Below are positions 11,328 to 32,581 of a stretch of DNA of 64,000 bases, piece after piece. A program made the translations under genes and the position numbers. Numbering within the stretch: position 1 is the first letter of the stretch; each line of letters opens with the position of its first letter. The DNA lies in contig JBAZMT010000001.1 in NCBI GenBank assembly GCA_041649615.1, forward strand, positions 26,981-90,980. Direction: 5' to 3'. The stretch comes from Parcubacteria group bacterium (GTDB lineage Bacteria; Patescibacteriota; Minisyncoccia; UBA6257; Colwellbacteraceae). A model generated the notes under the pieces. It saw only the letters and a program-made list of their open reading frames with translations, ran no database searches and was not told the DNA's origin.

Positions 11328-11449
11328 AAAAGCCCTTTTACTTCAGGTAATAATAAACTCCTAAAGGCAGAAAAAATCAATAAATTCTCTTGACAAAAAA
11401 CTATAAATATGATACGGTGGGGGTGTAATCTGATAAAAATGGCGTAAGC

Positions 11450-15872: not shown

Positions 15873-18800
15873 TTGGCAAATAATTGTAAAATAAAGCAAA
15901 TGCACCATAAATCTAGAAAACTGCGTTCCGTGTTTTTGATTGCCGGGGTTGTTGCGTTACTTACGGGTACGGCGTATGCCGCGAACGTTGCTCGCGACAT
16001 GCTTGTTTACCGCGGCACCATTACATCGGTTCCGGTCTATAGGACTCATGACGGATCGACTTTCTCAAGTGAAAGCTCCGCTTTGTCCGTCAGCGTCGCC
16101 ATTAACAACATAAAAGTCGTTTCGAAACCGGGAACGGGCGCCGTTGAAAAAGTAATGTGCGCGACCAACACCTCTAACGACGTGTATTGCCAAGTTTACA
16201 ATGGAGCTTCTTGGGGAAATTCCATTACGCTTTCAACCGCCACCGGAGGACAAAGAGCTTTCGATCTGGCCTACGAGAGCGTTTCCGGTCGTGCCGTGGC
16301 TTGTTATCGCAGTCCGTTGAATACCCAGATGCCGTATTGCGCGATTTGGGATGGGTCAAGTTGGGGGACGCCTTTTACCGCAACGGCGACAGGTTCGGCT
16401 CTTACGACAATGCGATTGATTTCCGATCCGAACTCAAATTATATCGCGCTCATTACCCGCAACGGCGGGAACGACCTCAATACGCAAATTTGGAACGGAT
16501 CTTCTTTCAGCGCGATTCAATCCTTGACGGCGAACGGCTCGAATTGCGCAGGGTGTTTGTCCTATGCTGGCGCGTGGGAGGGAAGTTCCGGAGATTTTGT
16601 AGCCGGATGGTTTGATAACACTACGGGTAATTTACAAAGCAAAGAGTTCAATAAAACATCGGGTTGGGTAGCGACAATTAACAATGTAATTACTTCTGTA
16701 TCGACCGCCAATGTGTGGATTGAAATGGCTTCGCGACCTTTTGCGAACGATATTCTCGTGGCGGTTTTGGACGGTAGTAGCGTATTAAGAGCCAATCATT
16801 GGTCGGGCTCTAACTGGGATACAACAGGAACGACGGCAATAACACTCGCTTCGCCGATTTCGGGCACGGTTTCGTCCACAAACCATTTATTCGACATCGC
16901 TTACGAGCAAAGGGCGGATTACGACGCAGTCGTCGCTTACGGCTCGACCGCGAGCAGTTTGCAATACCGCGTTTGGGATACCGGCACGAATACTTGGGGG
17001 ACCGCCGCAACTCTGCCGACGGCTTCGCAGAACGCGACGTGGCTGCAACTGGCATCGGATCCAAAATTGGCAAATATCATGTTGACGCTGCTTGGTTCTA
17101 CGAACATCGGCACTCTTGAATGGAACGGGAACGCCTGGGATCCTTCGTGGACGGCGCAAAGCACCGCGAGCAACGATAACCGCTGGAATGCCTGGTTCGC
17201 CTACGATAAAGAGGACGAGAACGATCATGCGCCGTCTATCGTCATAAATAGTGCCGCAGAGAAAACGAACGGATCGGGACTCGTCGATATTTCCGTTAGC
17301 GTGAGTGACGTCGGTTTGGATAACGCAAAACTAAAAGTGGAATACGGTGCGTGCGATGGAACTTGGCAAAACGCCGCGATTACAAGCTTAGTTTCAGCGA
17401 CCTATGGAACTCCGGACATCAGCGGCGGCGATTATCAAATAGGCACGAATACTCCGATTGTCACAAATCCAGCTATCACGGGCTCTAGCGCGAACACACT
17501 CACATTTTTATGGGATTCAAAAACGGATCTGGCAAACGGAAACGCAACGTATTGTTTAAGATTCACCGGACATGACGGTGTAAGCGCCACGGAAATTCCG
17601 CCGACGACAACGTTGATGATAGATAACGTGAGGCCAGCAGTCCCTACAGATTTTCAGGGAGTCGGCACAACTTCGTCTATACAGCACTTAAACTGGACGT
17701 CCGCGTCAGATACGAATTTTAACCATTATGAATTTTGGTACGGCACAGACCAAACAAAAGTTGAAGATCAGATAAGTTCTCCGGGCGAAGCCGTGGAGTT
17801 CGGCCCGGCTGATTTTCCAACCCTAAATAATGCGGCGACTTATCACGCCCATATTATGGAGCTTGACCCGCTAACGACATATCACTTTGCGTTGTGGGCG
17901 GTTGACGATTTTGGAAATGAAACAATGGCGATGCTCAAGTCAGGTTTGGACGCTCCAAATGATTCGGGCGACTCGCTTACTTATACGACTCTTGAAACGG
18001 ATTTTAACGCCACTCCGATTTCGGCTGTTCCAACGGATATGGAACAAGTGGAAAATGACACGCGATATGTAACTTTTAGCGCGAGGATTTACGACATAGA
18101 TTTGGATGATGTTTTGATGCGCGTGCGATTTGCGACGGATGCAGACGGTTTTGCGACTTTTAATAATGCCAATATTGTTTCAGCCGAAGTCATAAATCCC
18201 GTAACGGACCCCGAAGGTCCTTGGGATGACGATAACATTGCCATAGATAATACGTTTGATTTTCAGGTTGGAAAAGGAAATCCCATAAGCCTCAATGAGT
18301 TTACGCCTCACGAAGATCTTGACGGAAACTCCGAAGGCGCCGTTCTTCTGATAATTTGGGACACAAAAGCCAGTGAACTTAATGGTTTTGCCGGAGACGT
18401 AAAAATTCAAGTAACGCCAATGGATATAAACGGTCAGATCGGTTCAGTTTACACAAGCGCCGAATTTGAAATAGACGATAAATATCCCACTTTGACCGAG
18501 ATTATTCCCGTACCGCAATATACGAACGACGCAACGCCAAGTTACACTTTTAATTCGAACGATGTTGCGACCCTTGAGTACGATGGATCTTGCAATAGTT
18601 CAACGACGTCAATATCGGCGGGAAATAAGACAATAACTCTTTCCGTTCCGGGCGAGGGAACGTATGACGACTGCACTATCACGGCCACGGACGATAATTA
18701 TAATTCGGATCCCGTTTTATCGGTTCTACATATCACTCCGTTTGTCGTTGATACGACTTTGCCGACAGGGTTAGCGAGTCTTGCGGCCGGAACTTCAACA

Positions 18801-19520
18801 ACCACAACCCAACAATTAACCTGGAATTCCGCAACAGACGCGAATTTTGATCACTATGAGATATGGTACGGAACGAATCAGCCTGATGTGGAGAATCGTG
18901 CAGGTTCGGCAAAAAAATGGAGCGTCACGAATGATGTGACGCTTGGTATTGCGGTAACCACCGAAACAACGATTAGCGGATTAACCTCTGGAACCACTTA
19001 TTCCTATAAAATATGGGCGGCTGATATTGCGGGAAACGAAGCGACGATTTCCGGCATTTTTAAAGCCACGAGTTCTTCTGGCGGAGGAAACAATAACGGA
19101 GGGAGTGGGAAAGGAAGTTCCTATATTCCACCACCGCCCTTACCTATAGAACAAGCAAGTCTCGGAGAGCTTATAAATCAGGTAAGGATTCTTATCGGGC
19201 AATATGTCGCCGCCGGCGGCACGCTTACGCCGGGTATGGTCGCTTTTCTTGAAACAAGCAATATTTTGGCGCCATCATCGTTGCCGGTGAGGGATCTCCA
19301 ATTCGGAATGATCGGCGAGGACGTGCGTACTTTGCAGAGAATTTTGATTGATCTGGGATATGCCATACCATCCGGCGCAACCAGCCGGTTCCTATGGGAA
19401 ACGCAAGCAGCTCTTTCCGCCTATCAGCGCGACCATAAAATTTCTCCGGCAGTGGGAATGTTCGGCCCGGTCACAAGAGCCTATATGAAAGAAGCTGGCG
19501 TCCCCGGGATTTGGTGGTGA
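15873..19520 (+). CDS. large secreted surface protein with repeated Ig/FN3-like modules and C-terminal peptidoglycan-binding (PG_binding_1-like) domain
   Basis: 1215 aa. Signal peptide LIAGVVALLTGTAYAA. Internal repeats NWTSASDTNFNHYEFWYGTDQ / TWNSATDANFDHYEIWYGTNQ. C-terminal LQRILIDLGY...AYQRDHKI resembles PG-binding helix-bundle repeats. Confidence 0.7.
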   Translation: MANNCKIKQMHHKSRKLRSVFLIAGVVALLTGTAYAANVARDMLVYRGTITSVPVYRTHDGSTFSSESSALSVSVAINNIKVVSKPGTGAVEKVMCATNTSNDVYCQVYNGASWGNSITLSTATGGQRAFDLAYESVSGRAVACYRSPLNTQMPYCAIWDGSSWGTPFTATATGSALTTMRLISDPNSNYIALITRNGGNDLNTQIWNGSSFSAIQSLTANGSNCAGCLSYAGAWEGSSGDFVAGWFDNTTGNLQSKEFNKTSGWVATINNVITSVSTANVWIEMASRPFANDILVAVLDGSSVLRANHWSGSNWDTTGTTAITLASPISGTVSSTNHLFDIAYEQRADYDAVVAYGSTASSLQYRVWDTGTNTWGTAATLPTASQNATWLQLASDPKLANIMLTLLGSTNIGTLEWNGNAWDPSWTAQSTASNDNRWNAWFAYDKEDENDHAPSIVINSAAEKTNGSGLVDISVSVSDVGLDNAKLKVEYGACDGTWQNAAITSLVSATYGTPDISGGDYQIGTNTPIVTNPAITGSSANTLTFLWDSKTDLANGNATYCLRFTGHDGVSATEIPPTTTLMIDNVRPAVPTDFQGVGTTSSIQHLNWTSASDTNFNHYEFWYGTDQTKVEDQISSPGEAVEFGPADFPTLNNAATYHAHIMELDPLTTYHFALWAVDDFGNETMAMLKSGLDAPNDSGDSLTYTTLETDFNATPISAVPTDMEQVENDTRYVTFSARIYDIDLDDVLMRVRFATDADGFATFNNANIVSAEVINPVTDPEGPWDDDNIAIDNTFDFQVGKGNPISLNEFTPHEDLDGNSEGAVLLIIWDTKASELNGFAGDVKIQVTPMDINGQIGSVYTSAEFEIDDKYPTLTEIIPVPQYTNDATPSYTFNSNDVATLEYDGSCNSSTTSISAGNKTITLSVPGEGTYDDCTITATDDNYNSDPVLSVLHITPFVVDTTLPTGLASLAAGTSTTTTQQLTWNSATDANFDHYEIWYGTNQPDVENRAGSAKKWSVTNDVTLGIAVTTETTISGLTSGTTYSYKIWAADIAGNEATISGIFKATSSSGGGNNNGGSGKGSSYIPPPPLPIEQASLGELINQVRILIGQYVAAGGTLTPGMVAFLETSNILAPSSLPVRDLQFGMIGEDVRTLQRILIDLGYAIPSGATSRFLWETQAALSAYQRDHKISPAVGMFGPVTRAYMKEAGVPGIWW

Positions 19521-19784: not shown

Positions 19785-20168
19785 TCAGGCTTTAATCTCT
19801 CTTATTTCTAATTGCGATTTACCTTCCTTTTTGGGTTGCTGGAAATTTATTAGAAGACCAATTTTTATTTTTAGAGTTTTCATATAATTTTTTATTTGTT
19901 GTTCCTCAGAGGGACCTAAATTTCCACTGATAGCTTTTAACTCAATTATTATTTTATTTTCGCCGGAGTTTACTATTATGTCGGGATATCCTTCACCTAC
20001 ATAATGATCTTTATATTTTATTTCTACTACCTTCTGACTCTCATATTTTGTTTTTGCTAAGCGAAGACTTACTTGCATAGCCCTATCATAAACCTTTTCG
20101 TCAAATCCAGAACCAAGCGATTGATAAACTTCTTTTGCTATTTGTTTGATTTTTGCGATATTTATCAT
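19785..20168 (-). CDS. GxxExxY-family protein (PD-(D/E)XK-like fold)
   Basis: 127 aa with GSGFDEKVYDRAM (GxxExxY) near the N-terminus and (D)IIVNSGENKIIIELK...GLLINF at the C-terminus, matching the GxxExxY family pattern. Confidence 0.65.
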   Translation of the reverse strand: MINIAKIKQIAKEVYQSLGSGFDEKVYDRAMQVSLRLAKTKYESQKVVEIKYKDHYVGEGYPDIIVNSGENKIIIELKAISGNLGPSEEQQIKNYMKTLKIKIGLLINFQQPKKEGKSQLEIREIKA

Positions 20169-20229: not shown

Positions 20230-20300
20230 CTGCCGGGCAGGGATTCGGACCCCGATACCATGCTCCAGAGGCATGTGTCCTACCATTAGACGACCCGGCA
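20230..20300 (-). tRNA. tRNA-Gln (anticodon CUG)
   Basis: Reverse complement TGCCGGGTCGTCTAATGGTAGGACACATGCCTCTGGAGCATGGTATCGGGGTCCGAATCCCTGCCCGGCAG folds as a cloverleaf: 7-bp acceptor, anticodon stem CATGC/GCATG, loop CTCTGGA. CCA is not encoded. Confidence 0.8.
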
Positions 20301-20343: not shown

Positions 20344-20928
20344 ATGGCAAAGGAAATTATTGCGAAATCTTTGGAGATTACAGCTGATCTGGACGGCATA
20401 AGTCTTAAGGCTTTAACGGAGCATTATAAACTTTACGAAGGATATGTGAAGAAAGTTAGCGAAATTCGCGAGAGATTGAAAACAGCCGACAGAACGACAG
20501 CGAATGCGACATACAGCGAGATAGGGGAATTGGGAAGGCAAGAGACATTCGCCTTGAATGGAGTGAAATTGCATGAGATTTATTTTGGAATCTTAGGAGG
20601 TGACGGAAAAATAAAAGGAAAAATAGCGGATATGATTACTCGGGATTACGGATCAGTTGAGAATTGGACTGCTATTATGTCTGCGGCGGGGCTTTCGGCG
20701 AGAGGATGGGTAATAACCGCTTATGACATCAACGAAGAAAGACTCCGGATTTTCAATGCTGACGCGCATAACGTTGGCATCGTTGCAGGAATTATTCCTT
20801 TAATAACGCTTGACGTTTACGAACACGCTTACTTTATGGATTACGGAACGAATCGCAAAGGATACATTGAAGCGTTTTTCAAGAATTTGAGTTGGGACGC
20901 AATAGATTCGCTCGCGAAAAATATATAG
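20344..20928 (+). CDS. Fe/Mn superoxide dismutase-like protein
   Basis: C-terminal LDVYEHAYFMDYGTNRKGYIEAFFKNLSWDAI matches the SOD C-terminal domain (D-x-W/Y-E-H ligands). Candidate N-terminal His ligands are in TEHYKLYEGYV and KLHEIYF. 194 aa. Confidence 0.5.
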   Translation: MAKEIIAKSLEITADLDGISLKALTEHYKLYEGYVKKVSEIRERLKTADRTTANATYSEIGELGRQETFALNGVKLHEIYFGILGGDGKIKGKIADMITRDYGSVENWTAIMSAAGLSARGWVITAYDINEERLRIFNADAHNVGIVAGIIPLITLDVYEHAYFMDYGTNRKGYIEAFFKNLSWDAIDSLAKNI

Positions 20929-21893: not shown

Positions 21894-22687
21894 TTAAAAA
21901 CGATTTTGAAGATGAATTGGTCCAGGAGGACCAAAGCGCCCAGGAGAAAAACGTAAAAAGAAAAGACTTTCATACTGGCGCGGGAGAAGAAATCAAGCAT
22001 AAAACGGATGGCGAAGTAGCCCGTAACGCCAGCGACAAGCATTCCCAAAACAAGAGGCCAAACGCCGACAATTTGGAACGTTTCTCCGGTTAAATTTTTA
22101 ACATCAAAAAGAGCCGAGCCGATAATCGCGGGGACGGACATCAGAAAAGAAAATTTAATGGCAAATTCTTTTTTAAACCCTCTGAACAATCCTACGGAAA
22201 TAGTTGACCCGGAACGGGAAAGAGCGGGGATTATCGCTGCCGCCTGAGCAAGCCCTACAAAAATCGCGTCCATATAAGACATACTGTCCAGGTCTTTGCC
22301 GTAGTGAATCTGTTCTTTATTCCGGTCGGCCAAAAAAAGCACGATACCCGTGAGGATAAAACAGGGCCCCAAAAATTTTCCCGATGAAAAAGCGTATTCA
22401 AAGAAATTATGAAAAGCGAATCCTACGACAACGGCGGGAATGGTCGCCAAAACAACGAGACGGGTCAGTTTGCTTAGAGGTCTTCGGATCATAAGCCAAA
22501 TTTCCCGCCAAAAAACGGCGATCACGGCTACGAGAGTCGCGACATGCAGAGCGATGTCAAAAGCGAGCGCTCCCTCGCTTACACCGAACACTTTTTGGAG
22601 AAGAACCAAATGACCGGAACTGGAGACGGGCAGAAATTCGGTCAATCCCTGAACGGCGCCTAAAACAACAGATTCTAAAATACTCAT
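21890..22687 (-). CDS. uppP: undecaprenyl-diphosphate phosphatase
   Basis: N-terminus SVVLGAVQGLTEFLPVSSSGHLVL is the BacA/UppP signature. 8 TM, 265 aa. Confidence 0.9.
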   Translation of the reverse strand: MSILESVVLGAVQGLTEFLPVSSSGHLVLLQKVFGVSEGALAFDIALHVATLVAVIAVFWREIWLMIRRPLSKLTRLVVLATIPAVVVGFAFHNFFEYAFSSGKFLGPCFILTGIVLFLADRNKEQIHYGKDLDSMSYMDAIFVGLAQAAAIIPALSRSGSTISVGLFRGFKKEFAIKFSFLMSVPAIIGSALFDVKNLTGETFQIVGVWPLVLGMLVAGVTGYFAIRFMLDFFSRASMKVFSFYVFLLGALVLLDQFIFKIVFN

Positions 22688-23526
22688 CGGATAATTATGG
22701 GTTTCTTACCTTCAACTTGAATGGACTTAATTATCAGTTTACTCTCAATAATTTCCGCATCCAAAAGCTTGACTCTTTTTCCGTTTTTAACGGTCCAACA
22801 CCCCGGTTCCGGAGTATAGGCTCTGATTTTTCGTTCAATAATATTTGGAAGGTCGTTTTCGCCGGCTTCGGCCGACTCAAGTTCTTTCGGAGAAACATAG
22901 GCGTCATCGGTCGTGATTTTTTTGGTGAAAGTCGCTTCGGTTTCTTTTTGAGATTCAAGTTTAAGAGAGGAAGAAATGGAGGGAATAATTTCCTTAACCA
23001 TATCGCTTCCCAAAATGGCGAGTCGGTCTCCCAAAGATTCGGTATTATCCTCTGAATGGATTACGAGCGAACGCGAAAGAATAATCGGTCCGTGATCCAT
23101 TTTCTCATCAATTAGGTAAAGAGTAGCACCTGTTTCTTTAAGTCCGTTTAGAATGGCGGATTGAATAGGTGTTGTGCCACGGAGCTTGGGAAGGAGGGAA
23201 GGATGGACGCCGATCGTCCCATAGCGGGGAATGTCAATCAGTTCTTTCGGCAGGATTTTTCCGTAAGCGGCGACAAGAAAAAAATCGGCGTTGAATTCGC
23301 GAAGACGGGCTAGAAATTCTTCGTTAATTTTTTCGGGCTGAAGAACGGGAATGCGGGGGTTTAATTTTTGGGAAGTGATTTTCGCGGCCGGAGAAGTGAT
23401 AACTTTCTTTCGACCAACCGGACGATCGGGGTTCGTGACTATCGCGAGAGGAGAAAGCCCTCCCTCAATAAGGCGGCCCAAAACTATGGCGGCAAATCGC
23501 GGAGTGCCGAAAAAAACGAAATTCAT
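22684..23526 (-). CDS. fmt: methionyl-tRNA formyltransferase
   Basis: Start moved to the internal ATG (MNFVFFGTPRFA) matching the Fmt N-terminus. Formyltransferase core and C-terminal Fmt domain present. 4-bp overlap with uppP. Confidence 0.9.
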   Translation of the reverse strand: MNFVFFGTPRFAAIVLGRLIEGGLSPLAIVTNPDRPVGRKKVITSPAAKITSQKLNPRIPVLQPEKINEEFLARLREFNADFFLVAAYGKILPKELIDIPRYGTIGVHPSLLPKLRGTTPIQSAILNGLKETGATLYLIDEKMDHGPIILSRSLVIHSEDNTESLGDRLAILGSDMVKEIIPSISSSLKLESQKETEATFTKKITTDDAYVSPKELESAEAGENDLPNIIERKIRAYTPEPGCWTVKNGKRVKLLDAEIIESKLIIKSIQVEGKKPIIIR

Positions 23527-23642
23527 ACTTTTAAAGAATACCTTGAAAATGGGGATTTTTGGAAGATTTGTTGACTGCACTCAAGAAAAAAGCGAATATA
23601 GGCAAATCGGTTTTTGAAAAATTTATAAGGAGGAACTATCGA

Positions 23643-24575
23643 ATGAACGAGATTGCCAAAGGAATAGACCTTTCGGCTTTGAAAGGCAATCAATACGACT
23701 GGTTACTCGCAAGACTCATTACGGAAGGGACGGAAACGCCGAGTCCGCAGAAAGAATCCGCGTGGAGGCTTCCGCCCGTAACTTTGGCCTACGACTTAAG
23801 GGTAGAAACTGGCGAAGCAGACAGGATTTTACTACCCGTGCCGAAGAGCAGTTCAAAAAACGGTATTTTCTCCGCTATCGGGGAAATAACGGCTTTTATG
23901 AACGGCGTCGTGACCCACGAAGGGTTAATGGAGTTTGGCTGCGACTGGTGGGAAAGATGGACGAGCGAGGAATATCTTAAACATTGCGAACTCGATCTTA
24001 TGCCCGGAGAATTGGGGCCCGGATCGTACGGAGCGGCGCTTCACGATTTTCCGACAGCGGAAGGAAAACCCTTCAACCAGGTGAAACACGTGACGGAGCA
24101 AATAAAAGAGCTCCCGTATCTTCGTACGCATCTTTGGACCACATGGATTCCGCAGTATATCGGAAGAGGCAAGGGCAAGAAGAGGCAAGTGGCGGTGGCT
24201 CCGTGCCATGGCACTATCACGGATTTTGTTCCGAACATACAGACGAAAGAGCTATCGCTTTATCACGTACAGCGCTCGGGTGACGTGCCGGTCGGCGTGA
24301 AATGGAACATAATCCAATATTGCGCGGCTCTTTTGATGATGGCGCATGTCACCGGCTATAAGCCCGCCTTCTACTACCATATCATTCTTGACCCGCACAT
24401 CTATGCGCGACAGGTGGAACCCGTGAAGGAATATCTCAAATTCCCGGAAAAAGATTTTCCGAACCTTGTTCTCAAAAATACCGACATCACGGATATCTTC
24501 GCTTTTCGTAATACGGATTTTGAGCTCGAAGGTTACCTCAAGAGGCCGTACATCAACATACCGACACCCGACTGA
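23643..24575 (+). CDS. thyA: thymidylate synthase family protein (ThyA-like, divergent, N177-type)
   Basis: Start chosen at the ATG preceded by a strong RBS (taaggaggaactatcgaATG). Catalytic APCH cysteine motif, QRSGD, KWNIIQY (Asn retained) and LDPHIYARQVEPVKEYL align with ThyA PCH / QRSxD / PFNIASY / GDxHxY. A Thr follows the conserved Arg of the RR pair. Confidence 0.75.
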   Translation: MNEIAKGIDLSALKGNQYDWLLARLITEGTETPSPQKESAWRLPPVTLAYDLRVETGEADRILLPVPKSSSKNGIFSAIGEITAFMNGVVTHEGLMEFGCDWWERWTSEEYLKHCELDLMPGELGPGSYGAALHDFPTAEGKPFNQVKHVTEQIKELPYLRTHLWTTWIPQYIGRGKGKKRQVAVAPCHGTITDFVPNIQTKELSLYHVQRSGDVPVGVKWNIIQYCAALLMMAHVTGYKPAFYYHIILDPHIYARQVEPVKEYLKFPEKDFPNLVLKNTDITDIFAFRNTDFELEGYLKRPYINIPTPD

Positions 24576-24594
24576 CTTCCGAAGGAGGATAAAT

Positions 24595-25548
24595 ATGAAT
24601 GCAATGCCTAAGGTTGCGATCATCGCGGCAGTATCGCTCAACGGCGTAATCGGAAAAGAGGGGAAAATCCCTTGGAAAATTCCGAGCGATCTCAAGAGAT
24701 TCAAAAAGATCACAATGGGACATCCTGTCCTTATGGGGAGGAAAACCTACAGGTCTATTGGAAAGCCTTTGCCCGGAAGGATGAACATTGTTCTTACAAG
24801 GAACCGCGATTGTTCCTTAGAGGGATGCGTCGTGGTCCATTCTTTTGACGAGGCGTTTGTCGCGTGCGACAAGAACGAAACACTTTTCGTAATTGGCGGA
24901 GGAGAGGTTTATCGCGAAGCGTTAAAATACGCGAGCGAGTTTCATTTCACGAGAGTAAATAAAGTGATTGAGCACGGGAACGCTTTTTTCCCGGAATGGG
25001 ATCAAGACCAATGGGAGGATGTCACTTTTCCGGAGTATTCTGATCTTTTGCAAGAAGGTGACGAGGTCTCCTACACTTTCAGGTCGCTCCGGCGAAAAAA
25101 TCTTTATACTACCGACAATGCCCGGACAGCCGATCAGCGCGAAGCAATGGAACGTATAATGGCCGGAGGCAAATGCAATTTCTGCTTGCCTGATCTCGGA
25201 GAAGAGCACAAGAAGCCGATCATTTACGTGGGCGAGCACTTCAAAGTAACGGAGAACCAATGGCCTTATCCGGCTGCCAAGAACCACATTCTTATCATTT
25301 CCAAGACTCACGTCAGTCGTCTTGCCGATCTGCCAAAAGGAGCGGGAGACGAATTGATACGCATCGCCTGTATGCTTCAGGAGACGTATAGCGTGAAAGG
25401 CGGAGCAATCTGCATGCGGTTCGGAGATTCAAATCTGAACGGTGCGAGTGTGGAGCACTTTCACGTTCATTTTCTAGTTCCGGACCCGGAAAAAGAAGCT
25501 CTCTTTTTCTGGATTGATAAAAAAGACAAAATAATAAGCCCCGTCTGA
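24595..25548 (+). CDS. folA: dihydrofolate reductase fused to a C-terminal HIT (histidine-triad, Hint-like) domain
   Basis: Start at the ATG after RBS ggaggat. N-terminal approx. 165 aa is DHFR (VAIIAAVSLNGVIGKEGKIPWKIPSDLKRFKKITMGHPVLMGRKTYRSIG, VIGGGEVY). C-terminal approx. 150 aa has CNFC and the histidine triad EHFHVHFLV. Confidence 0.75.
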   Translation: MNAMPKVAIIAAVSLNGVIGKEGKIPWKIPSDLKRFKKITMGHPVLMGRKTYRSIGKPLPGRMNIVLTRNRDCSLEGCVVVHSFDEAFVACDKNETLFVIGGGEVYREALKYASEFHFTRVNKVIEHGNAFFPEWDQDQWEDVTFPEYSDLLQEGDEVSYTFRSLRRKNLYTTDNARTADQREAMERIMAGGKCNFCLPDLGEEHKKPIIYVGEHFKVTENQWPYPAAKNHILIISKTHVSRLADLPKGAGDELIRIACMLQETYSVKGGAICMRFGDSNLNGASVEHFHVHFLVPDPEKEALFFWIDKKDKIISPV

Positions 25549-25568
25549 TCAGACGGGGTCTTTTTTTA
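25538..25568. terminator. bidirectional rho-independent terminator
   Basis: gccccgtctgatcagacggggtc hairpin flanked by A-run and T-run, between the convergent genes DHFR-HIT (+) and the dCMP-deaminase fusion (-). Confidence 0.65.
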
Positions 25569-26391
25569 CTTTGACTATCCCGATGCCGTTTTCCGCAAAA
25601 ATGCGTTTTGCGTCCAATCTTGAATATCCTTCCGTGACGTAAAGCGTTTTAATGCCCGCTTGTGAAAGAAGATTGGCACAAGGGGGACAAGGGAAAGTGG
25701 AAACGAACACTTCTGCTCCGGCAAGGCTTATTCCTTTTTTGGCCGCTTCAGCAATAAGGGCGGCTTCGGCGTGAATGGAGGAAGAAAGTTCAATGTGTTC
25801 GCCGGCGTTAAACGGCGTTCTCGGGTCACCCGAATAATACGGTTCAAGTTCGGTTGGCAGATGATGGTTATGGGCGGCAAGCAAAATATTTCCATCACGA
25901 AACGCGACCGCTCCGATTTGCCGCCACCAGTCGGAAGACAATTCTTTTTCACGAAAGGCGGTTTTCAATACGGAGGAGTCAAAATTTTCGCTTGTTATTT
26001 CTTTATCCCAAAAAACAGGTTCTTCCTGAAGAACGTTGAATTTATTCCAACGAAGAAAAACCGAATCAAAAACAATGTTCGTTTCGGTTGGCAATAACTT
26101 TGCGATTTCGGAAGAAATATCTTCTTTCGGCATGATAATGGGGCCTTTACGAGATTCGGCGATAATGTCGTTTATGTCGGCGTTTTTTATTTCATCTAAA
26201 ATGCCGAGAGACCTGATGGAAGAGGAAATTTCTTCGTTTTCCAGAGCGCGCATGTCTCTTTTGAGATATTCAATCGCACTTATTATGGTCTTATCGGGAA
26301 TCAGGAGAGTTCCTCCCGCGTATTTTTTGAAGAACTCAATATACCCGCGATGCAGAACCGGAACGTAGGCAACAATGGTATTTTTTTTCAT
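25549..26391 (-). CDS. dCMP/cytidine deaminase zinc-binding domain protein with approx. 150-aa N-terminal domain of unknown function
   Basis: C-terminal HAEAALIAEA and TFPCPPCANLL are the CMP/dCMP deaminase Zn ligands (H-A-E and P-C-x-x-C). The N-terminal half has no recognised motif. Confidence 0.7.
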   Translation of the reverse strand: MKKNTIVAYVPVLHRGYIEFFKKYAGGTLLIPDKTIISAIEYLKRDMRALENEEISSSIRSLGILDEIKNADINDIIAESRKGPIIMPKEDISSEIAKLLPTETNIVFDSVFLRWNKFNVLQEEPVFWDKEITSENFDSSVLKTAFREKELSSDWWRQIGAVAFRDGNILLAAHNHHLPTELEPYYSGDPRTPFNAGEHIELSSSIHAEAALIAEAAKKGISLAGAEVFVSTFPCPPCANLLSQAGIKTLYVTEGYSRLDAKRIFAENGIGIVKVKKDPV

Positions 26392-27062
26392 CAGCTGATT
26401 CCCGATAATTCGTTAAGCGCCGAATTAATCTTCTCTTTGACTTTGGCAAGAGTATCCGTATGCAATTTGTGTATTTTACCGGTCGTAGAAGTTTCCGCTT
26501 GAGGGGGAAGAATCAAAATATCTTTTGCCCAATTTTTGATTTCTCCGATCATTCCGTCTCTGCCGCCTTCGTGCAAGAAATCGGTGGATTCAGACAGGAT
26601 GAGAAAATCCGGTTTGATGAGTTCGCCCAATCTCCAGCTATATTCTTCCTCTTGCTTGATTATCACGTAATCCACATCTGTCGTGTAGGTTAACATTTCA
26701 GCGCGTTCATCTTGCGGGACTATCGGGCGATGTTCTCCTTTTCTCTTTCTGACTTCCGTATCGCTGTCAACGGCCACGATTAGAATGATGTCGTCCTTGT
26801 CCTTGCTTGTTTTTCTGGCGACACTTTCAATGGCAGACAAAAAATATCGGCAATGTCCGATATGAAACAAATCAAAAGTGCCGCTTAAAAAGACAATAAC
26901 CTTACCCAATACTTTTTGGGCATTAACTATCTCAACCAACCTGTCATAAGAGGGAATTATCTTTGAATTTTTTCCTTCACTTATACCGTTCATGACGTGA
27001 TACCTTAAAGCTAAAGCTTGATTGTATCCAGTGTCAATTGACAAAAAATCGCCATATTTCAA
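26391..27062 (-). CDS. cytidylyltransferase-like nucleotidyltransferase (RfaE-II/TagD-like HxGH family)
   Basis: GTFDLFHIGH (T/HxGH motif) followed by VAVDSDTEVRKRKGEHRPIVPQDERAEMLTYTTDVDYVII, as in TagD / RfaE domain II. Stop/start overlap with the deaminase gene. Confidence 0.6.
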   Translation of the reverse strand: MKYGDFLSIDTGYNQALALRYHVMNGISEGKNSKIIPSYDRLVEIVNAQKVLGKVIVFLSGTFDLFHIGHCRYFLSAIESVARKTSKDKDDIILIVAVDSDTEVRKRKGEHRPIVPQDERAEMLTYTTDVDYVIIKQEEEYSWRLGELIKPDFLILSESTDFLHEGGRDGMIGEIKNWAKDILILPPQAETSTTGKIHKLHTDTLAKVKEKINSALNELSGIS

Positions 27063-27070
27063 GGCGATTT

Positions 27071-27520
27071 TTATTTTAAGTAGTCAATTATCAGTTTTCC
27101 GTTCAGGTGATCGGTTTCGTGCTGGAAAATCCTAGCAAGAATTCCGAAGGCTTTGATTTTCAGCTTTTTGCCGGATTTGTCTTCGGCTTCAAGGGTAATC
27201 GTTTCGGAACGGGAGACGGGGACGATGACGCCGGGAACGCTCAAGCATCCTTCCTCCATTTCGGTCGTTTTTTCGGAATACTTCGTGATTCGCGGATTGA
27301 AAATAACGTAAAACTTACCGTCATAACTTACGATGAACATTCGCCAATTCAGTCCAACCTGATTTGCCGAAATACCAACGCCGTCACTTGCCTTCATCAT
27401 TTTTCTCATTTCCGAAACGGTCTGTCTTATCTCCTCTACAGAATGTTTCTTGAAATCAAAATCGGGCGTTTTACGCTTTAAGATTTTTCGGTTTTTGCTT
27501 TTTGTCGTGACTAATTCCAT
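27071..27520 (-). CDS. def: peptide deformylase
   Basis: EGCLSVPG and QHETDHLNG metal-binding motifs. 149 aa. Confidence 0.9.
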   Translation of the reverse strand: MELVTTKSKNRKILKRKTPDFDFKKHSVEEIRQTVSEMRKMMKASDGVGISANQVGLNWRMFIVSYDGKFYVIFNPRITKYSEKTTEMEEGCLSVPGVIVPVSRSETITLEAEDKSGKKLKIKAFGILARIFQHETDHLNGKLIIDYLK

Positions 27521-27866
27521 TTTTGTTGGTCTTAGAATTTAATCGCCAAACTTTCATAAAGTAGGCTCCTTTGTTTTTGACGCGGGGATTTTCGGCGATG
27601 GATTTGGCCGTGTAGAGCATTTTTTCTCCATTCTCTTCGCGCGCCATTTTAATATAGAGGGATTTGTGATCGTTGTCTCCTAAAGTTTCCGCAACCATCA
27701 AGCCGATCATCTGATGACGCGAATGAATCCGGTTTTTTTTCGCCCGCTCTTTTATCTTATCAAGATAAGCGTTGAATTGAGGTTTACTGTCCACAAGTCC
27801 ATTACGCCATAACTTTATAGAAATGTCAAACATCAGAAGATGCAAAATGCAAAGCGCAAAACGCAA
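27471..27866 (-). CDS. hypothetical basic protein
   Basis: 131-aa ORF on the same strand upstream of def, overlapping the def start by 50 nt. No motif recognised; the true start may be an internal Met. Confidence 0.25.
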   Translation of the reverse strand: MRFALCILHLLMFDISIKLWRNGLVDSKPQFNAYLDKIKERAKKNRIHSRHQMIGLMVAETLGDNDHKSLYIKMAREENGEKMLYTAKSIAENPRVKNKGAYFMKVWRLNSKTNKNGISHDKKQKPKNLKA

Positions 27867-30163: not shown

Positions 30164-31066
30164 ATGAGTGAAAAGACTTCCGTGTTTGCACCGGTGCCAA
30201 TAGTAGCGGCGATGAAAAAGGTGCTACAGGTGTTAAAACTTTCCGAAGGTGCCGAAGCATGGGATCAAGTGCGGGCAACCGAACTGCAGCGCTCTTTCTT
30301 CCACGATTACTACGCGCTCCGAGGGAAAAACCCACTTGAGTGCTTTTCAAAAGACGAGCTCAAGAGTTACGCCTCCGCTTCCGCCGAGACGCTCAACAAG
30401 ATTCTCGAGAGAAACGGATTTCCCGACATGCGGCTCGCTGACCTGAATAGATGGGAATTCGGAACGGCCGCGATTCTCGACGTTATGCTTTCGTGGCGGA
30501 AGAAGGGCATAAAAACGAACCTGAAATACGAAGGAAAAAATTATCCGGCTGTCGAAATGGCAGGCGGGCTGGATGCCGGGTTTGAAATCGTAAGATACAA
30601 AGGAAACGACGTCGCGGCGATTAAGACGAAGAACGGGGACGTTGTCTATATGACGATTGCCGACAAAGCTTACGAGGGTTTCGCGCTCGCGAATCGAATC
30701 AATGCCATTGCGGACACGACCCCGAAAAATTCGGAAGAGAAAGTTGACAGCCTCTATTTTCCCATGATTGACGCGAAAGTCGACTCGGATATTTCGTGGC
30801 TTTGCGGCTTGCGGATAAAGCGGACGGATTTCTATATCGCGCAAGCTTTGGAACAGACCAAAATAAGAATGGATGAAACAGGCGTCCGGGTCACAAGCGC
30901 CGTATCGCTCGGCATGCAAATTACGGCTTACGCGCGAATCGTCCGCATTGATAAGCCGTTTTTCATGTGGATCGAGAGAACGGACAAGGAAGGAGGAAAA
31001 CTCCGGTATTTCTACGGATACTTCGCGGAAGATTCGTGGAAGGCTCCGGAAGGACTCACAAGATAA
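30164..31066 (+). CDS. short serpin-like (SERPIN superfamily) protein
   Basis: N-terminal SVFAPVPIVAAMKKVLQVLKLSEGAEAWDQV resembles the serpin NxFFSPxSIxxALAMxxLGA block. C-terminal IRMDETGVRVTSAVSL...IDKPFFMWIERTDKEGGKLRYFYGYF resembles the hinge/RCL and DRPFLFxI...LFxGRV blocks. Only 300 aa. Confidence 0.45.
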   Translation: MSEKTSVFAPVPIVAAMKKVLQVLKLSEGAEAWDQVRATELQRSFFHDYYALRGKNPLECFSKDELKSYASASAETLNKILERNGFPDMRLADLNRWEFGTAAILDVMLSWRKKGIKTNLKYEGKNYPAVEMAGGLDAGFEIVRYKGNDVAAIKTKNGDVVYMTIADKAYEGFALANRINAIADTTPKNSEEKVDSLYFPMIDAKVDSDISWLCGLRIKRTDFYIAQALEQTKIRMDETGVRVTSAVSLGMQITAYARIVRIDKPFFMWIERTDKEGGKLRYFYGYFAEDSWKAPEGLTR

Positions 31067-31072
31067 GACTAC

Positions 31073-31101
31073 AGCGAGGCTTTAAAGCCTCGCTTTTTTA
31101 T
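31073..31101. terminator. bidirectional rho-independent terminator
   Basis: agcgaggctttaaagcctcgct hairpin + ttttttatt, between convergent genes. Confidence 0.65.
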
Positions 31102-31859
31102 TTGTAGCCGATTTGTTTTAGCCAGGGTAAGTGTTCCCATTCCCAAAGCTTTTTAGCTCCCAAGAAGGCTTCGTAATCTTCGGCGAAATCGGGAAATTCC
31201 TGAATTTCTATTTCGCCTTTAACGGCGCTCCATTCATGTTCGCAGTTTTTGGCAAAACCGTTTCGCCAAGGAAGCTTTATTTTTTCGTTTCCGCCTTTCG
31301 TTCTTTTTATCGCTCCGCATTTGCGGCAAGACTGGTTTTGATCCACGCGCAGAATCCAGCGAGTTGAAATTTCGGGAATTTCATAACGGAGAGGCTCCAT
31401 ATAAGCCGAAGTTTGGAGACAATAATCGCGATATATGGCTTGCGAAGTTTTAATGTCCAGTACGCCGACTTTGCCGCCGATTTCAACAATCGCATCGGCG
31501 GTGCCGGAATATCTTTCGTCAAAATTGATAATTCTTTTTTCAACGTGTTCGCGACAAGTGGAAATCTTTAACCCTTCATTTATTTTTATAAAAGCTTCCG
31601 CCGCTCCGCGAATATCATCCGTAAGGGTAGGGGAATCACCAACCATGATCGCTTGGATAATTTCATGAATTGCCGTTCCTTCGTCGGCTGATTTTTGTTT
31701 GATCGCTTCTCCCATCGCATAACTCGGGAGAGAAGCATAGTACCGATATAAGGCAGGTTTGGCTTTGATATTTACGATACTCGTAACTCGGGGATACCAA
31801 ATGTCACCTATCACATAACCGGCTCCGGCTTTAAAGTCTTCCAGATTTTTATATTCCAT
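31098..31859 (-). CDS. Cas4-like / RecB-family PD-(D/E)XK nuclease with 4-Cys cluster (stand-alone)
   Basis: D...E-x-K core (SGTADAIVEI...VLDIKTS); one N-terminal Cys (STCREH) plus C-terminal CRKC...C. QxxxY-like YRDYCLQTSAY. 253 aa. No cas genes nearby. Confidence 0.55.
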   Translation of the reverse strand: MEYKNLEDFKAGAGYVIGDIWYPRVTSIVNIKAKPALYRYYASLPSYAMGEAIKQKSADEGTAIHEIIQAIMVGDSPTLTDDIRGAAEAFIKINEGLKISTCREHVEKRIINFDERYSGTADAIVEIGGKVGVLDIKTSQAIYRDYCLQTSAYMEPLRYEIPEISTRWILRVDQNQSCRKCGAIKRTKGGNEKIKLPWRNGFAKNCEHEWSAVKGEIEIQEFPDFAEDYEAFLGAKKLWEWEHLPWLKQIGYK

Positions 31860-31960: not shown

Positions 31961-32581
31961 ATGATATTTGCAATGCACAGTGGTTCCAGTGGCAGGTCTC
32001 TTAAGGGCTTCACGCTTATAGAGCTTCTTATAGTCATCGCCATCCTCGCGGTTCTTGCCGCCGCCGTGGTGGTTGTGTTGAATCCGGCTGAACTTCTCGC
32101 TCGGGCGAGAGACACGCAGAGGTTAAACGATTTGGATACGGTAAGGAACGCGCTCAATATTTATATAACTACGGTTTCTCCGATAGATTTAGGAGACTGT
32201 GTCGCTGCCGGAAGGGCAACCTTTCAGCCAGGCGCCACTATGGGACCGTTTGCGAATCACGTGGGTAGCGTAACGGTACCTGCAGCAGCGGATATGCAAA
32301 AAGTGAATAATGCTGGCTGGGTAAACGTTAATTTTACCCAGATTCCCGGAGGAGCGCCTCTCCCGTATCTTCCGATTGATCCTACAAACGATGCTAATTA
32401 CTTTTATGCCTACGCTTGCAGTGAATCGCCAAATTACATTTATGAATTAGCCGGAAGATTGGAGTCTCAAACGCATCGGGATAAAATGAAAATCGATGGG
32501 GGAAGTAATAGTACATGCGCCACTTATATTGAAAAGACGTGTTTTTATGAGTTAGGTACCGCTCCGGGATTGTCGCTATAA
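31961..32581 (+). CDS. type IV pilin-like protein (prepilin N-terminal methylation domain)
   Basis: GFTLIELLIVIAILAVLAA prepilin cleavage/methylation motif near the N-terminus. Confidence 0.75.
   Translation: MIFAMHSGSSGRSLKGFTLIELLIVIAILAVLAAAVVVVLNPAELLARARDTQRLNDLDTVRNALNIYITTVSPIDLGDCVAAGRATFQPGATMGPFANHVGSVTVPAAADMQKVNNAGWVNVNFTQIPGGAPLPYLPIDPTNDANYFYAYACSESPNYIYELAGRLESQTHRDKMKIDGGSNSTCATYIEKTCFYELGTAPGLSL

Follow-up and report, generated by a model that had tools for sequence, protein, structure and literature searches.

A conserved Patescibacterial gene cluster assigned to dTMP synthesis, with three nucleotide-handling parts of proposed accessory function

Why would a set of thymidylate genes keep a nucleotidyltransferase, a HIT (histidine triad) protein, and an additional deaminase domain in its company? 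The question is raised by a 64,000-nucleotide stretch of a Parcubacteria group genome, which is the part of the genome covered by the analysis and is referred to here as the window. An earlier note on this DNA described a four-gene module with unusual fusions lying between def and fmt and left open a nucleotide-modification function. We consider it probable, taking the pathway and the accessory hypothesis together, that the module is a housekeeping dTMP cluster of the ultra-small Patescibacteria. In the pathway, a zinc deaminase domain of the dCMP-deaminase type would supply dUMP, ThyA would methylate dUMP to dTMP with release of dihydrofolate, and DHFR would restore tetrahydrofolate. This assignment is firm and draws on sequence and comparative evidence; the mechanism that we suggest for the accessory parts is a hypothesis. 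Although such a pathway is ordinary, the cluster includes three conserved nucleotide-handling parts (the nucleotidyltransferase, or NTase; an NTase-like domain, or N-domain; and the HIT protein) with no published role. A literature search returned no published description of the cluster, and to our knowledge no experiment or precedent gives the NTase, the N-domain, or HIT a part in dTMP synthesis.

Gene content and signals of the locus

Profile matches in Pfam and NCBIfam bear out the gene and domain calls of the earlier note. From fmt to def, the order is thyA, the DHFR-HIT fusion, the N-domain deaminase, and the NTase, at the following window positions:

22684..23526, minus strand: fmt (methionyl-tRNA formyltransferase), 280 aa; TIGR00460 207.7 bits, cut-off 201.5
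23627..23633, plus strand: Shine-Dalgarno AAGGAGG, 9 nt before the thyA ATG, from the sequence
23643..24575, plus strand: thyA, divergent thymidylate synthase, 310 aa; PF00303 150.9 bits
24582..24588, plus strand: Shine-Dalgarno AAGGAGG, 6 nt before the DHFR-HIT ATG, from the sequence
24595-25548, plus strand: DHFR-HIT fusion gene; PF00186 and PF01230
24595..25110, plus strand: DHFR (FolA) domain of the fusion; PF00186 178 bits
25111..25548, plus strand: HIT domain of the fusion; PF01230 29.3 bits
25538..25559, no strand: bidirectional terminator-like hairpin in which both convergent genes have their stop codons
25549-26391, minus strand: deaminase fusion gene, 280-aa protein; N-domain and C-terminal dCMP-deaminase domain
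25549..25986, minus strand: dCMP-deaminase domain, residues about 136-280; PF00383 47 bits; HAE and PCxxC zinc motifs
25987..26391, minus strand: N-terminal domain of the deaminase protein, residues 1-135; predicted cytidylyltransferase-like fold
26391..27062, minus strand: CTP_transf_like gene, the cytidylyltransferase-family NTase; PF01467 50.7 bits
27071..27520, minus strand: def (peptide deformylase), 149 aa; PF01327 144 bits, TIGR00079 130 bits

For fmt, thyA, and DHFR-HIT, the listed open reading frames reach too far upstream, and the likely starts are 23526, 23643, and 24595; the NTase most likely begins at the ATG at 26993 (200 aa), a position matched in alignment by the start of its counterpart in the closest relative. 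Several signals described earlier were recovered. The divergent genes fmt and thyA are separated by 116 bp, and AAGGAGG precedes both thyA and DHFR-HIT, unlike most genes here, as Shine-Dalgarno matches of at least 7 nt occur at about 5 of the 63 window genes. A perfect hairpin, GCCCCGTCTGA/TCAGACGGGGT, spans both convergent stops with T-runs flanking it on both sides, consistent with a shared bidirectional terminator. The proposed tight coupling of def, NTase, and deaminase holds in part: all three are co-oriented and the NTase stop and deaminase start overlap as TGATG, but def lies ≈75 nt from the NTase when the latter starts at 26993.

Conservation of the cluster across Patescibacteria

For comparison, we used 80 Patescibacterial loci (±10 kb) selected for carrying the fusion deaminase, their deaminases being 39-67% identical to that of the window. 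Their layout is [NusG L11] [DHFR<] NTase> deaminase> <HIT [<HIT] [<DHFR] <thyA [glyA dut tmk folD]. Of the 80 genomes, 74-79 retain the core NTase>deaminase> <HIT <thyA (by part, NTase 79, HIT 76, thyA 74, and DHFR 63), with the NTase upstream of the deaminase in 79. That the core persists alongside deaminases of such modest identity places the arrangement far outside what chance would give. The cluster lies on chromosomes throughout the phylum rather than on phages, and the catalytic motifs of HIT and the NTase are invariant across the phylum.

Fusions vary around this core. HIT is in most relatives a separate gene of ≈150 aa directly 3' of thyA or DHFR, and full-length DHFR-HIT fusions are found in about 24 database protein clusters and 4 of the 80 loci; we know of no described DHFR-HIT enzyme. 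DHFR is instead fused to ThyA in six loci, and contigs from two samples encode the NTase, N-domain, and deaminase as a triple fusion, one protein of 469 aa. The earlier note had allowed that gene order and fusions might simply be standard in related genomes and the extra domains known housekeeping ones. In relatives, both the order of the genes and the fused deaminase are indeed standard, but the N-domain, HIT, and NTase lack well-characterized housekeeping functions.

The outer flanks include NusG/L11/L1, glyA (33 loci), dut (37 loci), tmk, and folD, and relatives also carry a dNMP-kinase-like gene in the cluster. Because def adjoins the module in only one locus (L001) and fmt in two (L001 and L007, the two closest relatives), with different flanks elsewhere, the description of def and fmt as split by the module does not stand; they are lineage-specific neighbors outside the conserved module, and the flanks reflect local rearrangement in this lineage. 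Unrelated conserved genes (NusG, L11, argS, and recO) also lie near the cluster, indicating long-range synteny. Streamlined genomes can keep synteny without a functional link.

The NTase, the HIT protein, and the N-domain

The NTase has the motifs HxGH, RKGxxRP, and TST, all invariant in its family alignment. It shares HxGH, RKGxxRP, and (S/T)T(S/T) with ethanolamine-phosphate cytidylyltransferase (ECT), HldC/RfaE domain II, CCT, and TagD at E values of 1e-12 to 1e-32, and profile comparison with the PDB gives ECT at 4.8e-32 and HldC at 4.5e-26. Unlike these enzymes, it falls under every equivalog cut-off (73.7 bits against RfaE domain II, cut-off 181.5) and has no linked envelope or lipid genes. 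That an HxGH nucleotidyltransferase has no obvious role in the route from dCMP through dUMP to dTMP had been remarked before and is borne out here; canonical routes require neither it nor the N-domain or HIT. The HIT domain contains CxxC, a conserved His, and an EHFHVHF triad; in the family alignment, C22, C25, H67, H116, and H118 are invariant and the third triad His varies (H/Q/N). It shares the His-x-His nucleophile motif of the HIT superfamily (Hint, Fhit, Ap4A phosphorylase, and the GalT branch), and we take its CxxC, His, and His pattern to resemble the GalT or Hint zinc site. Its label in the source databases is Ap4A hydrolase or ATP adenylyltransferase. In contrast to the wider superfamily, it belongs to a subfamily of its own that is seen in Patescibacteria alone and always adjoins thyA or DHFR.

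No Pfam or NCBIfam model matches the 135-aa N-domain. Its AF2 model (pLDDT 87) nevertheless has the predicted fold of a cytidylyltransferase, with 3glv, TagD, PPAT, and HldC as top Foldseek matches (probability 0.9-1.0, TM 0.5-0.6). HxGY replaces HxGH, the His, Gly, Arg, and acidic positions are retained, and P11, Y17, R48, P88, and F112-W115 are invariant. Sequence comparison with TagD suggests that residues lining the CTP site of TagD-type enzymes are retained too. Its profile is found only in this deaminase architecture (604 clusters) and has no significant sequence similarity to that of the NTase (hhalign E = 0.12).

We suggest that the N-domain is a degenerate, nucleotide-binding cytidylyltransferase-fold domain. 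Its most likely task would be to sense or hold a (d)NTP (dCTP or dTTP, for example) or to dock the deaminase onto the neighboring NTase. Such docking would be analogous to the paired CT domains of ECT, which are arranged in tandem, whereas here the partner of the NTase is on a separate protein, the deaminase. The NTase would transfer an NMP to a phosphate ester, and HIT would cleave the NMP from such a conjugate or transfer it; by these chemistries, both would therefore act on the 5'-phosphate side of pyrimidine nucleotides. Our best guess is that together they draw on triphosphates or nucleotide conjugates to provide monophosphate substrate (dCMP or dUMP), or else regulate its provision. A step of this kind would be required in cells that obtain all their nucleotides by salvage.

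Alternatively, the cluster could be syntenic but functionally divided, with ThyA, DHFR, and the deaminase forming the dTMP route, the NTase acting in the envelope or cofactor synthesis (CDP-glycerol, CDP-alcohol, ADP-heptose, or FAD), and HIT being a generic Hint/Fhit-type hydrolase. The NTase is a typical ECT/HldC/CCT/TagD-type enzyme and has lost none of its motifs, HIT is similar to Hint and Fhit proteins, and NusG, L11, argS, and recO lie adjacent, all of which fits this division. We nonetheless think it unlikely, given the gene overlap and 79-of-80 retention of the NTase/deaminase pair while outer flanks vary, the triple fusion, the repeated DHFR-HIT fusion, and the NTase-fold domain on the deaminase itself.

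The fused deaminase might also be a zinc-dependent dCTP or dual dCTP/dCMP deaminase that replaces canonical Dcd, the N-domain gripping the triphosphate, dCTP being converted to dUTP, and a neighboring dUTPase yielding dUMP for ThyA. We regard this as doubtful. Its best NCBIfam/PADLOC matches are anti-phage dCTP deaminases, but the matched stretch, which surrounds the zinc motifs, is only ≈70 residues long and scores 57 against a 400-bit cut-off. The best Foldseek matches are dCMP deaminases (S-TIM5, T4, human, and S. mutans), although PBCV-1 dCMP/dCTP deaminase is also among them. The TagD-like CTP-site residues and the dut genes in the clusters would suit dCTP as substrate, yet dUTPase is near-universal anyway, and the separate NTase and HIT would be left unexplained. 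DcdV and the anti-phage enzymes likewise place a nucleotide-binding N-domain ahead of a zinc deaminase; theirs, however, has a P-loop kinase fold rather than a cytidylyltransferase fold, and the present context is dTMP housekeeping, not a defense island.

ThyA and the product of the route

ThyA matches PDB thymidylate synthases at E values of about 1e-24 and scores 101.9, just short of the 108.35 set as the NCBIfam equivalog cut-off. All 62 of the 62 family members have E58, W80, W83, Y94, C146, H147, Q165, R166, S167, D169, N177, and H207, and most relatives retain a TS-like C terminus. A family-specific insertion, WIPQY..RGKGK, precedes the catalytic Cys, and R21 and R127, two of the four phosphate-binding arginines, are replaced. 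The view that every enzyme here is divergent or has an extra domain is thus upheld by ThyA, the DHFR-HIT fusion, and the deaminase N-domain. The domain calls, ThyA catalytic residues, and deaminase fold likewise agree with a three-enzyme route including folate recycling. DHFR is required only where dihydrofolate is produced. Because all catalytic residues checked, including Asn177, are kept and DHFR is linked, ThyA is by its sequence an enzyme that yields dTMP, not a modified base.

A modification module resembling phage pyrimidine hypermodification systems (dUMP/dCMP hydroxymethylases), in which the ThyA-like enzyme makes, for example, 5-hydroxymethyl-dUMP and the NTase and HIT decorate it, is very improbable. 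In its favor, phage ThyA homologs do such chemistry, their modules likewise joining a ThyA-family enzyme to a dCMP deaminase and further enzymes acting on nucleotides, and the divergence of ThyA and two unexplained nucleotide-handling enzymes would fit. Against it stand Asn177 and the other catalytic residues checked, the TS-type C terminus kept in most relatives, the linked or fused DHFR, the glyA, folD, dut, and tmk neighbors, the phylum-wide chromosomal distribution, the lack of a second thyA in the window or the ±10-kb loci, and recurrent neighbor families among which no modification enzyme, such as a glycosyltransferase or an hmdU kinase, was identified (some ORFs being unannotated).

The housekeeping dTMP cluster resembles the thyA-folA cycle unit with a dCMP deaminase of the ComEB, T4 Cd, or human DCTD type, sharing the three chemistries, folds, and catalytic residues, folA directly after thyA, and, in relatives, nearby folate and nucleotide genes. 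It differs in the 135-aa NTase-fold domain of the deaminase, which the known enzymes lack, the ThyA insertion and lost arginines, and HIT and NTase genes as fixed members. DHFR genes of the Candidate Phyla Radiation (Patescibacteria) complemented an Escherichia coli strain lacking folA (PMC11974145). Fusion of thymidylate-cycle partners is shared by the bifunctional DHFR-TS of protozoa and plants and the six loci encoding DHFR-ThyA; DHFR in the window is joined to HIT instead.

Gene content of the window locus

Six genes occupy window positions 22684-27520, with the thymidylate genes lying between fmt and def.

Genes of the locus (window positions, strand, product)
22684-23526, -, fmt, equivalog-level match
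23643-24575, +, thyA, PF00303 match of 150.9 bits
24595-25548, +, DHFR-HIT as a single ORF: full DHFR domain (178 bits) ahead of a HIT domain (CxxC, EHFHVHF)
25549-26391, -, N-domain-deaminase of 280 aa: N-domain (first 135 residues), then a dCMP-deaminase domain as the C-terminal half
26391-27062, -, NTase of the cytidylyltransferase family, start probably at the ATG at 26993
27071-27520, -, def, peptide deformylase gene

The sequence AAGGAGG lies upstream of both thyA and DHFR-HIT, and Shine-Dalgarno sequences as strong as this precede ~5 of the 63 genes in the window. The convergent DHFR-HIT and deaminase genes meet with zero spacer, and both of their stop codons fall inside a perfect palindromic hairpin (25538-25559) that is flanked by T-runs on either side. 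The NTase stop and the deaminase start overlap as TGATG. A second copy of thyA, DHFR, deaminase, HIT, or NTase is absent from the 64-kb window, as are dut, glyA, tmk, and folD.

Conserved gene order and recurrent gene fusions

The fusion deaminase belongs to a large family of full-length proteins annotated from Parcubacteria and Patescibacteria metagenome-assembled genomes. Scanning a single genome for each species yielded 553 confirmed loci, of which the best 80 were kept, and the window proteins were mapped onto these. Because the 80 loci were picked for carrying the fusion deaminase, the following counts describe genomes of that kind.

Occurrence of each part among the 80 loci
NTase directly upstream of the deaminase, 79/80
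HIT gene, 76/80
thyA, convergent and immediately downstream, 74/80
DHFR within 10 kb, position variable, 63/80
def adjacent, 1/80
fmt adjacent, 2/80

Clustering of the neighboring ORFs gives the following typical layout:
[NusG L11 (L1)] [DHFR<] NTase> deaminase> <HIT [<second HIT] [<DHFR] <thyA [glyA> dut> ...]

Genes for tmk, folD, and a dNMP-kinase-like P-loop protein also recur near the cluster. Together with the locus counts, this clustering identifies the conserved unit as a thymidylate and folate cluster, which is chromosomal in all 80 Patescibacterial genomes. An earlier note on this DNA had described the genes as a module splitting def from fmt. Domain scores and the sequence itself bear out its account of the genes, their domains, the strong Shine-Dalgarno sequences, and the shared bidirectional hairpin, whereas its def/fmt framing falls with the counts. 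We reject def and fmt as members of the system, as they adjoin it only in the closest relatives, and the placement between them is a rearrangement private to the lineage of the window. Such an arrangement is the norm in the phylum, which makes the finding less remarkable than a single genome had suggested. We are firm in regarding the cluster as the standard Patescibacterial dTMP cluster. Full-text literature searches returned no description of it or its fusions.

Several of the parts are fused to one another in independent combinations. Besides the window, four of the 80 loci encode a DHFR-HIT fusion, and the database contains about 24 clusters of such proteins at 35-58% identity to that of the window. 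In the closest relative (L001, 77% nucleotide identity), DHFR and HIT are instead overlapping ORFs, and a 4-nt indel at the junction (window 25095-25115, compared with L001 about 11290-11330) decides between one fused ORF and two overlapping ones. The junction in the window is known from one assembly, since L082, the sole further assembly of the genome, stops short of it. An assembly artifact is nevertheless rejected as a general explanation because the roughly 24 fusion clusters in the database are independent and full length. A further fusion, P0358, joins NTase, N-domain, and deaminase in a single protein of 469 aa and was assembled from two samples. Its contigs derive from ENA samples ERZ1426824 and ERZ1426813, and beside it lie a 315-aa DHFR protein, which is probably another DHFR-HIT, and then a 304-aa ThyA. 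DHFR-ThyA fusions of 466-553 aa with the DHFR domain N-terminal, an architecture classically linked to protozoa and plants, occur in the related loci L029, L035, L037, L051, L057, and L060 (about 11.3-13 kb).

One alternative is that the NTase and HIT genes are unrelated housekeeping genes kept in place by synteny. Independent fusions (NTase-deaminase, DHFR-HIT, and DHFR-ThyA) tie the accessory parts to the dTMP pathway.

The core enzymes: ThyA, DHFR, and the deaminase

The ThyA match to PF00303 (thymidylate synthase, EC 2.1.1.45) is far above the gathering threshold of 24.3 bits and covers profile positions 2-262 of 266. The protein scores below the TIGR03284 equivalog cut-off (101.9 versus 108.35 bits) and far below those of all NF0024xx equivalogs, and it is a member of a divergent clade that has an insertion before the catalytic cysteine. 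We aligned 62 family sequences with E. coli ThyA, whose numbering is used here; PDB alignments independently confirm the regions around R126/R127 and the Cys. Residues E58, W80, W83, Y94, C146, H147, Q165, R166, S167, D169, N177, and H207 are invariant in all 62, and position 209 is Tyr in 54 and Phe in 8; the checked residues are all present in the window protein. Among the phosphate-binding arginines, the family keeps R126 and R166, with R21 replaced by Gln, Ile, or Pro and R127 by Thr. Canonical thymidylate synthases close over the folate with their C-terminal residue, and most relatives have a TS-like C-terminus (the TS-typical PVAI, or PTPV). The window protein, whose gene ends at 24573-24575, has IPTPD at this end, and that of L001 has PTPT.

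Asn177 is the residue that specifies dUMP rather than dCMP. The genomic coupling of ThyA to DHFR is extensive, the two being adjacent in the window and fused at six loci, with DHFR within 10 kb at the 63 loci counted above. Such coupling makes sense only if this ThyA yields dihydrofolate. Because Asn177 is kept and the linkage to DHFR, including the six DHFR-ThyA fusions, is lasting, the sequence data speak for a genuine thymidylate synthase and against a hydroxymethylase.

The DHFR domain spans positions 2-159 of the 159 in PF00186 (DHFR_1) at 178.1 bits and falls below the type 3 DHFR equivalog (135.6 versus 168). DHFR genes from other Patescibacterial (Candidate Phyla Radiation, CPR) genomes complement E. 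coli lacking folA (PMC11974145).

The deaminase domain (PF00383, 47 bits against a threshold of 25) carries the zinc motifs HAE and PCxxC, with H207, E209, C235, and C238 invariant. Its best Foldseek matches are dCMP deaminases (target-normalized TM 0.63-0.83), and its closest superpositions are with the dCMP deaminases of S-TIM5, T4, human, and S. mutans and with the dCMP/dCTP enzyme of PBCV-1. Unlike ComEB/DCTD-type dCMP deaminases, which are single-domain proteins of ~140-190 aa, the Patescibacterial protein reaches 280 aa with its extra N-domain, and it scores 41 bits against 219 for the ComEB equivalog TIGR02571. A rival assignment as a dCTP deaminase accords with the PBCV-1 superposition. 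The anti-phage dCTP deaminases (NF041025/PADLOC dCTPase), however, match only over ~70 residues around the zinc motifs (57 versus 400 bits), and their N-terminal domain is kinase-like, whereas the N-domain of the fusion deaminase is predicted to have an NTase fold. With the domain and residue matches of ThyA, DHFR, and deaminase in hand, the proposal in the earlier note of a dCMP to dUMP to dTMP pathway proves right.

The accessory components and their possible roles

The NTase matches PF01467 at 50.7 bits (threshold 21) and carries the HxGH motif as GTFDLFHIGH and the C-terminal STT-type motif as AETSTTG, with G61, D64, H67, G69, H70, R107, K108, G109, R112, P113, and T193 invariant. No catalytic motif is missing from it that defines the ECT/HldC/CCT/TagD family, whose members transfer an NMP onto a phosphate monoester. 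The protein falls below all equivalog cut-offs, including that for heptose-1-phosphate adenylyltransferase (RfaE domain II/HldC; TIGR02199, 73.7 versus 181.5 bits), and no heptose or LPS genes were found among its neighbors at related loci. A P-loop protein of ~189 aa lies beside the NTase gene at L012:8795-9364 (+) and at about eight other loci; its similarity to deoxynucleotide monophosphate kinase (PF21448) and to dNK is weak.

The N-domain has no sequence homolog in Pfam, NCBIfam, or a profile search of the PDB. Its AlphaFold model is confident (pLDDT 87), and Foldseek aligns it to the cytidylyltransferase-fold enzymes 3glv, TagD, PPAT, and HldC (probability 0.9-1.0, TM 0.5-0.6, E 6e-3 to 5e-2), which would place it in the Rossmann-like HUP (HIGH-motif nucleotidyltransferase) class. 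The first strand-loop-helix contains HxGY in place of the cytidylyltransferase HxGH, and the ISTT motif is absent. Comparison with the profile of the neighboring NTase by hhalign was not significant (E = 0.12), although the sole local alignment sets HxGY on HxGH. Residue R48, the acidic pair E90/D91, and an FLRW motif (R114) vary little or not at all; by our own comparison, made without a tool, these presumably align to the CTP-binding Lys/Arg, the Asp, and the Arg of RTEGISTT in TagD. When 1.84 billion representative proteins were searched exhaustively with its profile, 604 clusters contained the domain; in each it forms the N-terminal part of such a deaminase or of a fragment of one. Its likely role is nucleotide binding, either regulating the deaminase or docking it to the NTase.

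The HIT domain (PF01230, 29.3 bits against 21.5; EHFHVHF present) forms a subfamily seen only in Patescibacteria. A CxxC, one further His, and the His-x-His of the nucleophile motif (H116, H118) are invariant, and the third His is His, Gln, or Asn. We take the CxxC+H+H pattern to resemble the zinc sites of GalT or Hint. Matches to the PDB are weak (Hint/Fhit-like proteins, ~1e-5) and do not fix the substrate branch. A second, longer HIT paralog (~190-205 aa) lies between the deaminase and the short HIT gene in about 20 of the 80 loci, for example at L062:5132-5704 (-), L072:10922-11536 (+), and L049:10901-11482 (-). It has a conserved C-terminal extension, RVE..YKG...FEK.R, and some copies are below Pfam detection.

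NTase and HIT would both act on the 5′-phosphate side of nucleotides. As a best guess, the two may provide or gate the monophosphate substrates of cells that depend on nucleotide salvage. Patescibacteria have no de novo nucleotide synthesis and must rebalance the nucleotides that they scavenge, so dTMP supply is a bottleneck for their DNA replication. The dTMP genes form one phylum-wide cluster with familiar pathway chemistry. Genuinely uncharacterized, in contrast, are its three conserved accessory parts (NTase, N-domain, and HIT), which merit testing as candidates for absent steps or controls in the salvage of pyrimidine deoxynucleotides across a very large and mostly uncultured share of bacterial diversity.

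A more elaborate scheme, to which we give very little credence, is a dTMP pathway run on capped nucleotides. The NTase would add an NMP to the 5′-phosphate of a deoxypyrimidine monophosphate, giving a dinucleoside diphosphate or a comparable conjugate linked through an NDP; this cap would be recognized by the NTase-like N-domain on the deaminase, and the ThyA clade, without R21 and R127 (two of the four phosphate-clamping arginines), could take the bulkier 5′ substituent. In the last step the cap would be taken off by the HIT protein, a neighbor or fusion partner of DHFR and ThyA whose superfamily cleaves nucleotide-phosphate conjugates. Intermediates at the dUMP level would in this way stay out of the kinase and polymerase pools.

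A nucleotide-modification module, the function that the earlier note had left open, is strongly disfavored: phage-type hypermodification modules lie on mobile or viral elements and combine a ThyA-like hydroxymethylase without DHFR coupling with modification enzymes (kinases, glycosyltransferases, or aminoacyltransferases), whereas the Patescibacterial cluster keeps Asn177, has a coupled or fused DHFR and housekeeping neighbors, is chromosomal throughout, and has no modification enzymes identified among its recurrent neighbor families. Phage and defense origins were likewise rejected, as the matches in PHROGs were all to generic families (TS, DHFR, dCMP-deaminase, and heptose-NTase) and PADLOC yielded just the partial deaminase-motif match.

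Other genes surround the locus in the window. A 131-aa ORF (27471-27866, -) without a Pfam or NCBIfam match overlaps the start of def by 50 nt, and L001 has a homolog of it in the equivalent place. Just upstream of the region are genes for a PD-(D/E)XK_3 family protein (19785-20168, -), a tRNA (20230-20300, -), and an Fe/Mn superoxide dismutase (20344-20928, +). A protein of 1215 aa (15873-19520, +), whose only domains are fn3 and peptidoglycan-binding domains near the C-terminus, may be a large surface protein; its gene adjoins that of a P-type cation ATPase (13062-15773, -). Two ORFs without a Pfam match, of 300 aa (30164-31066, +) and 253 aa (31098-31859, -), adjoin a gene (31961-32581) whose product has a type IV pilin-like methylation motif at its N-terminus.
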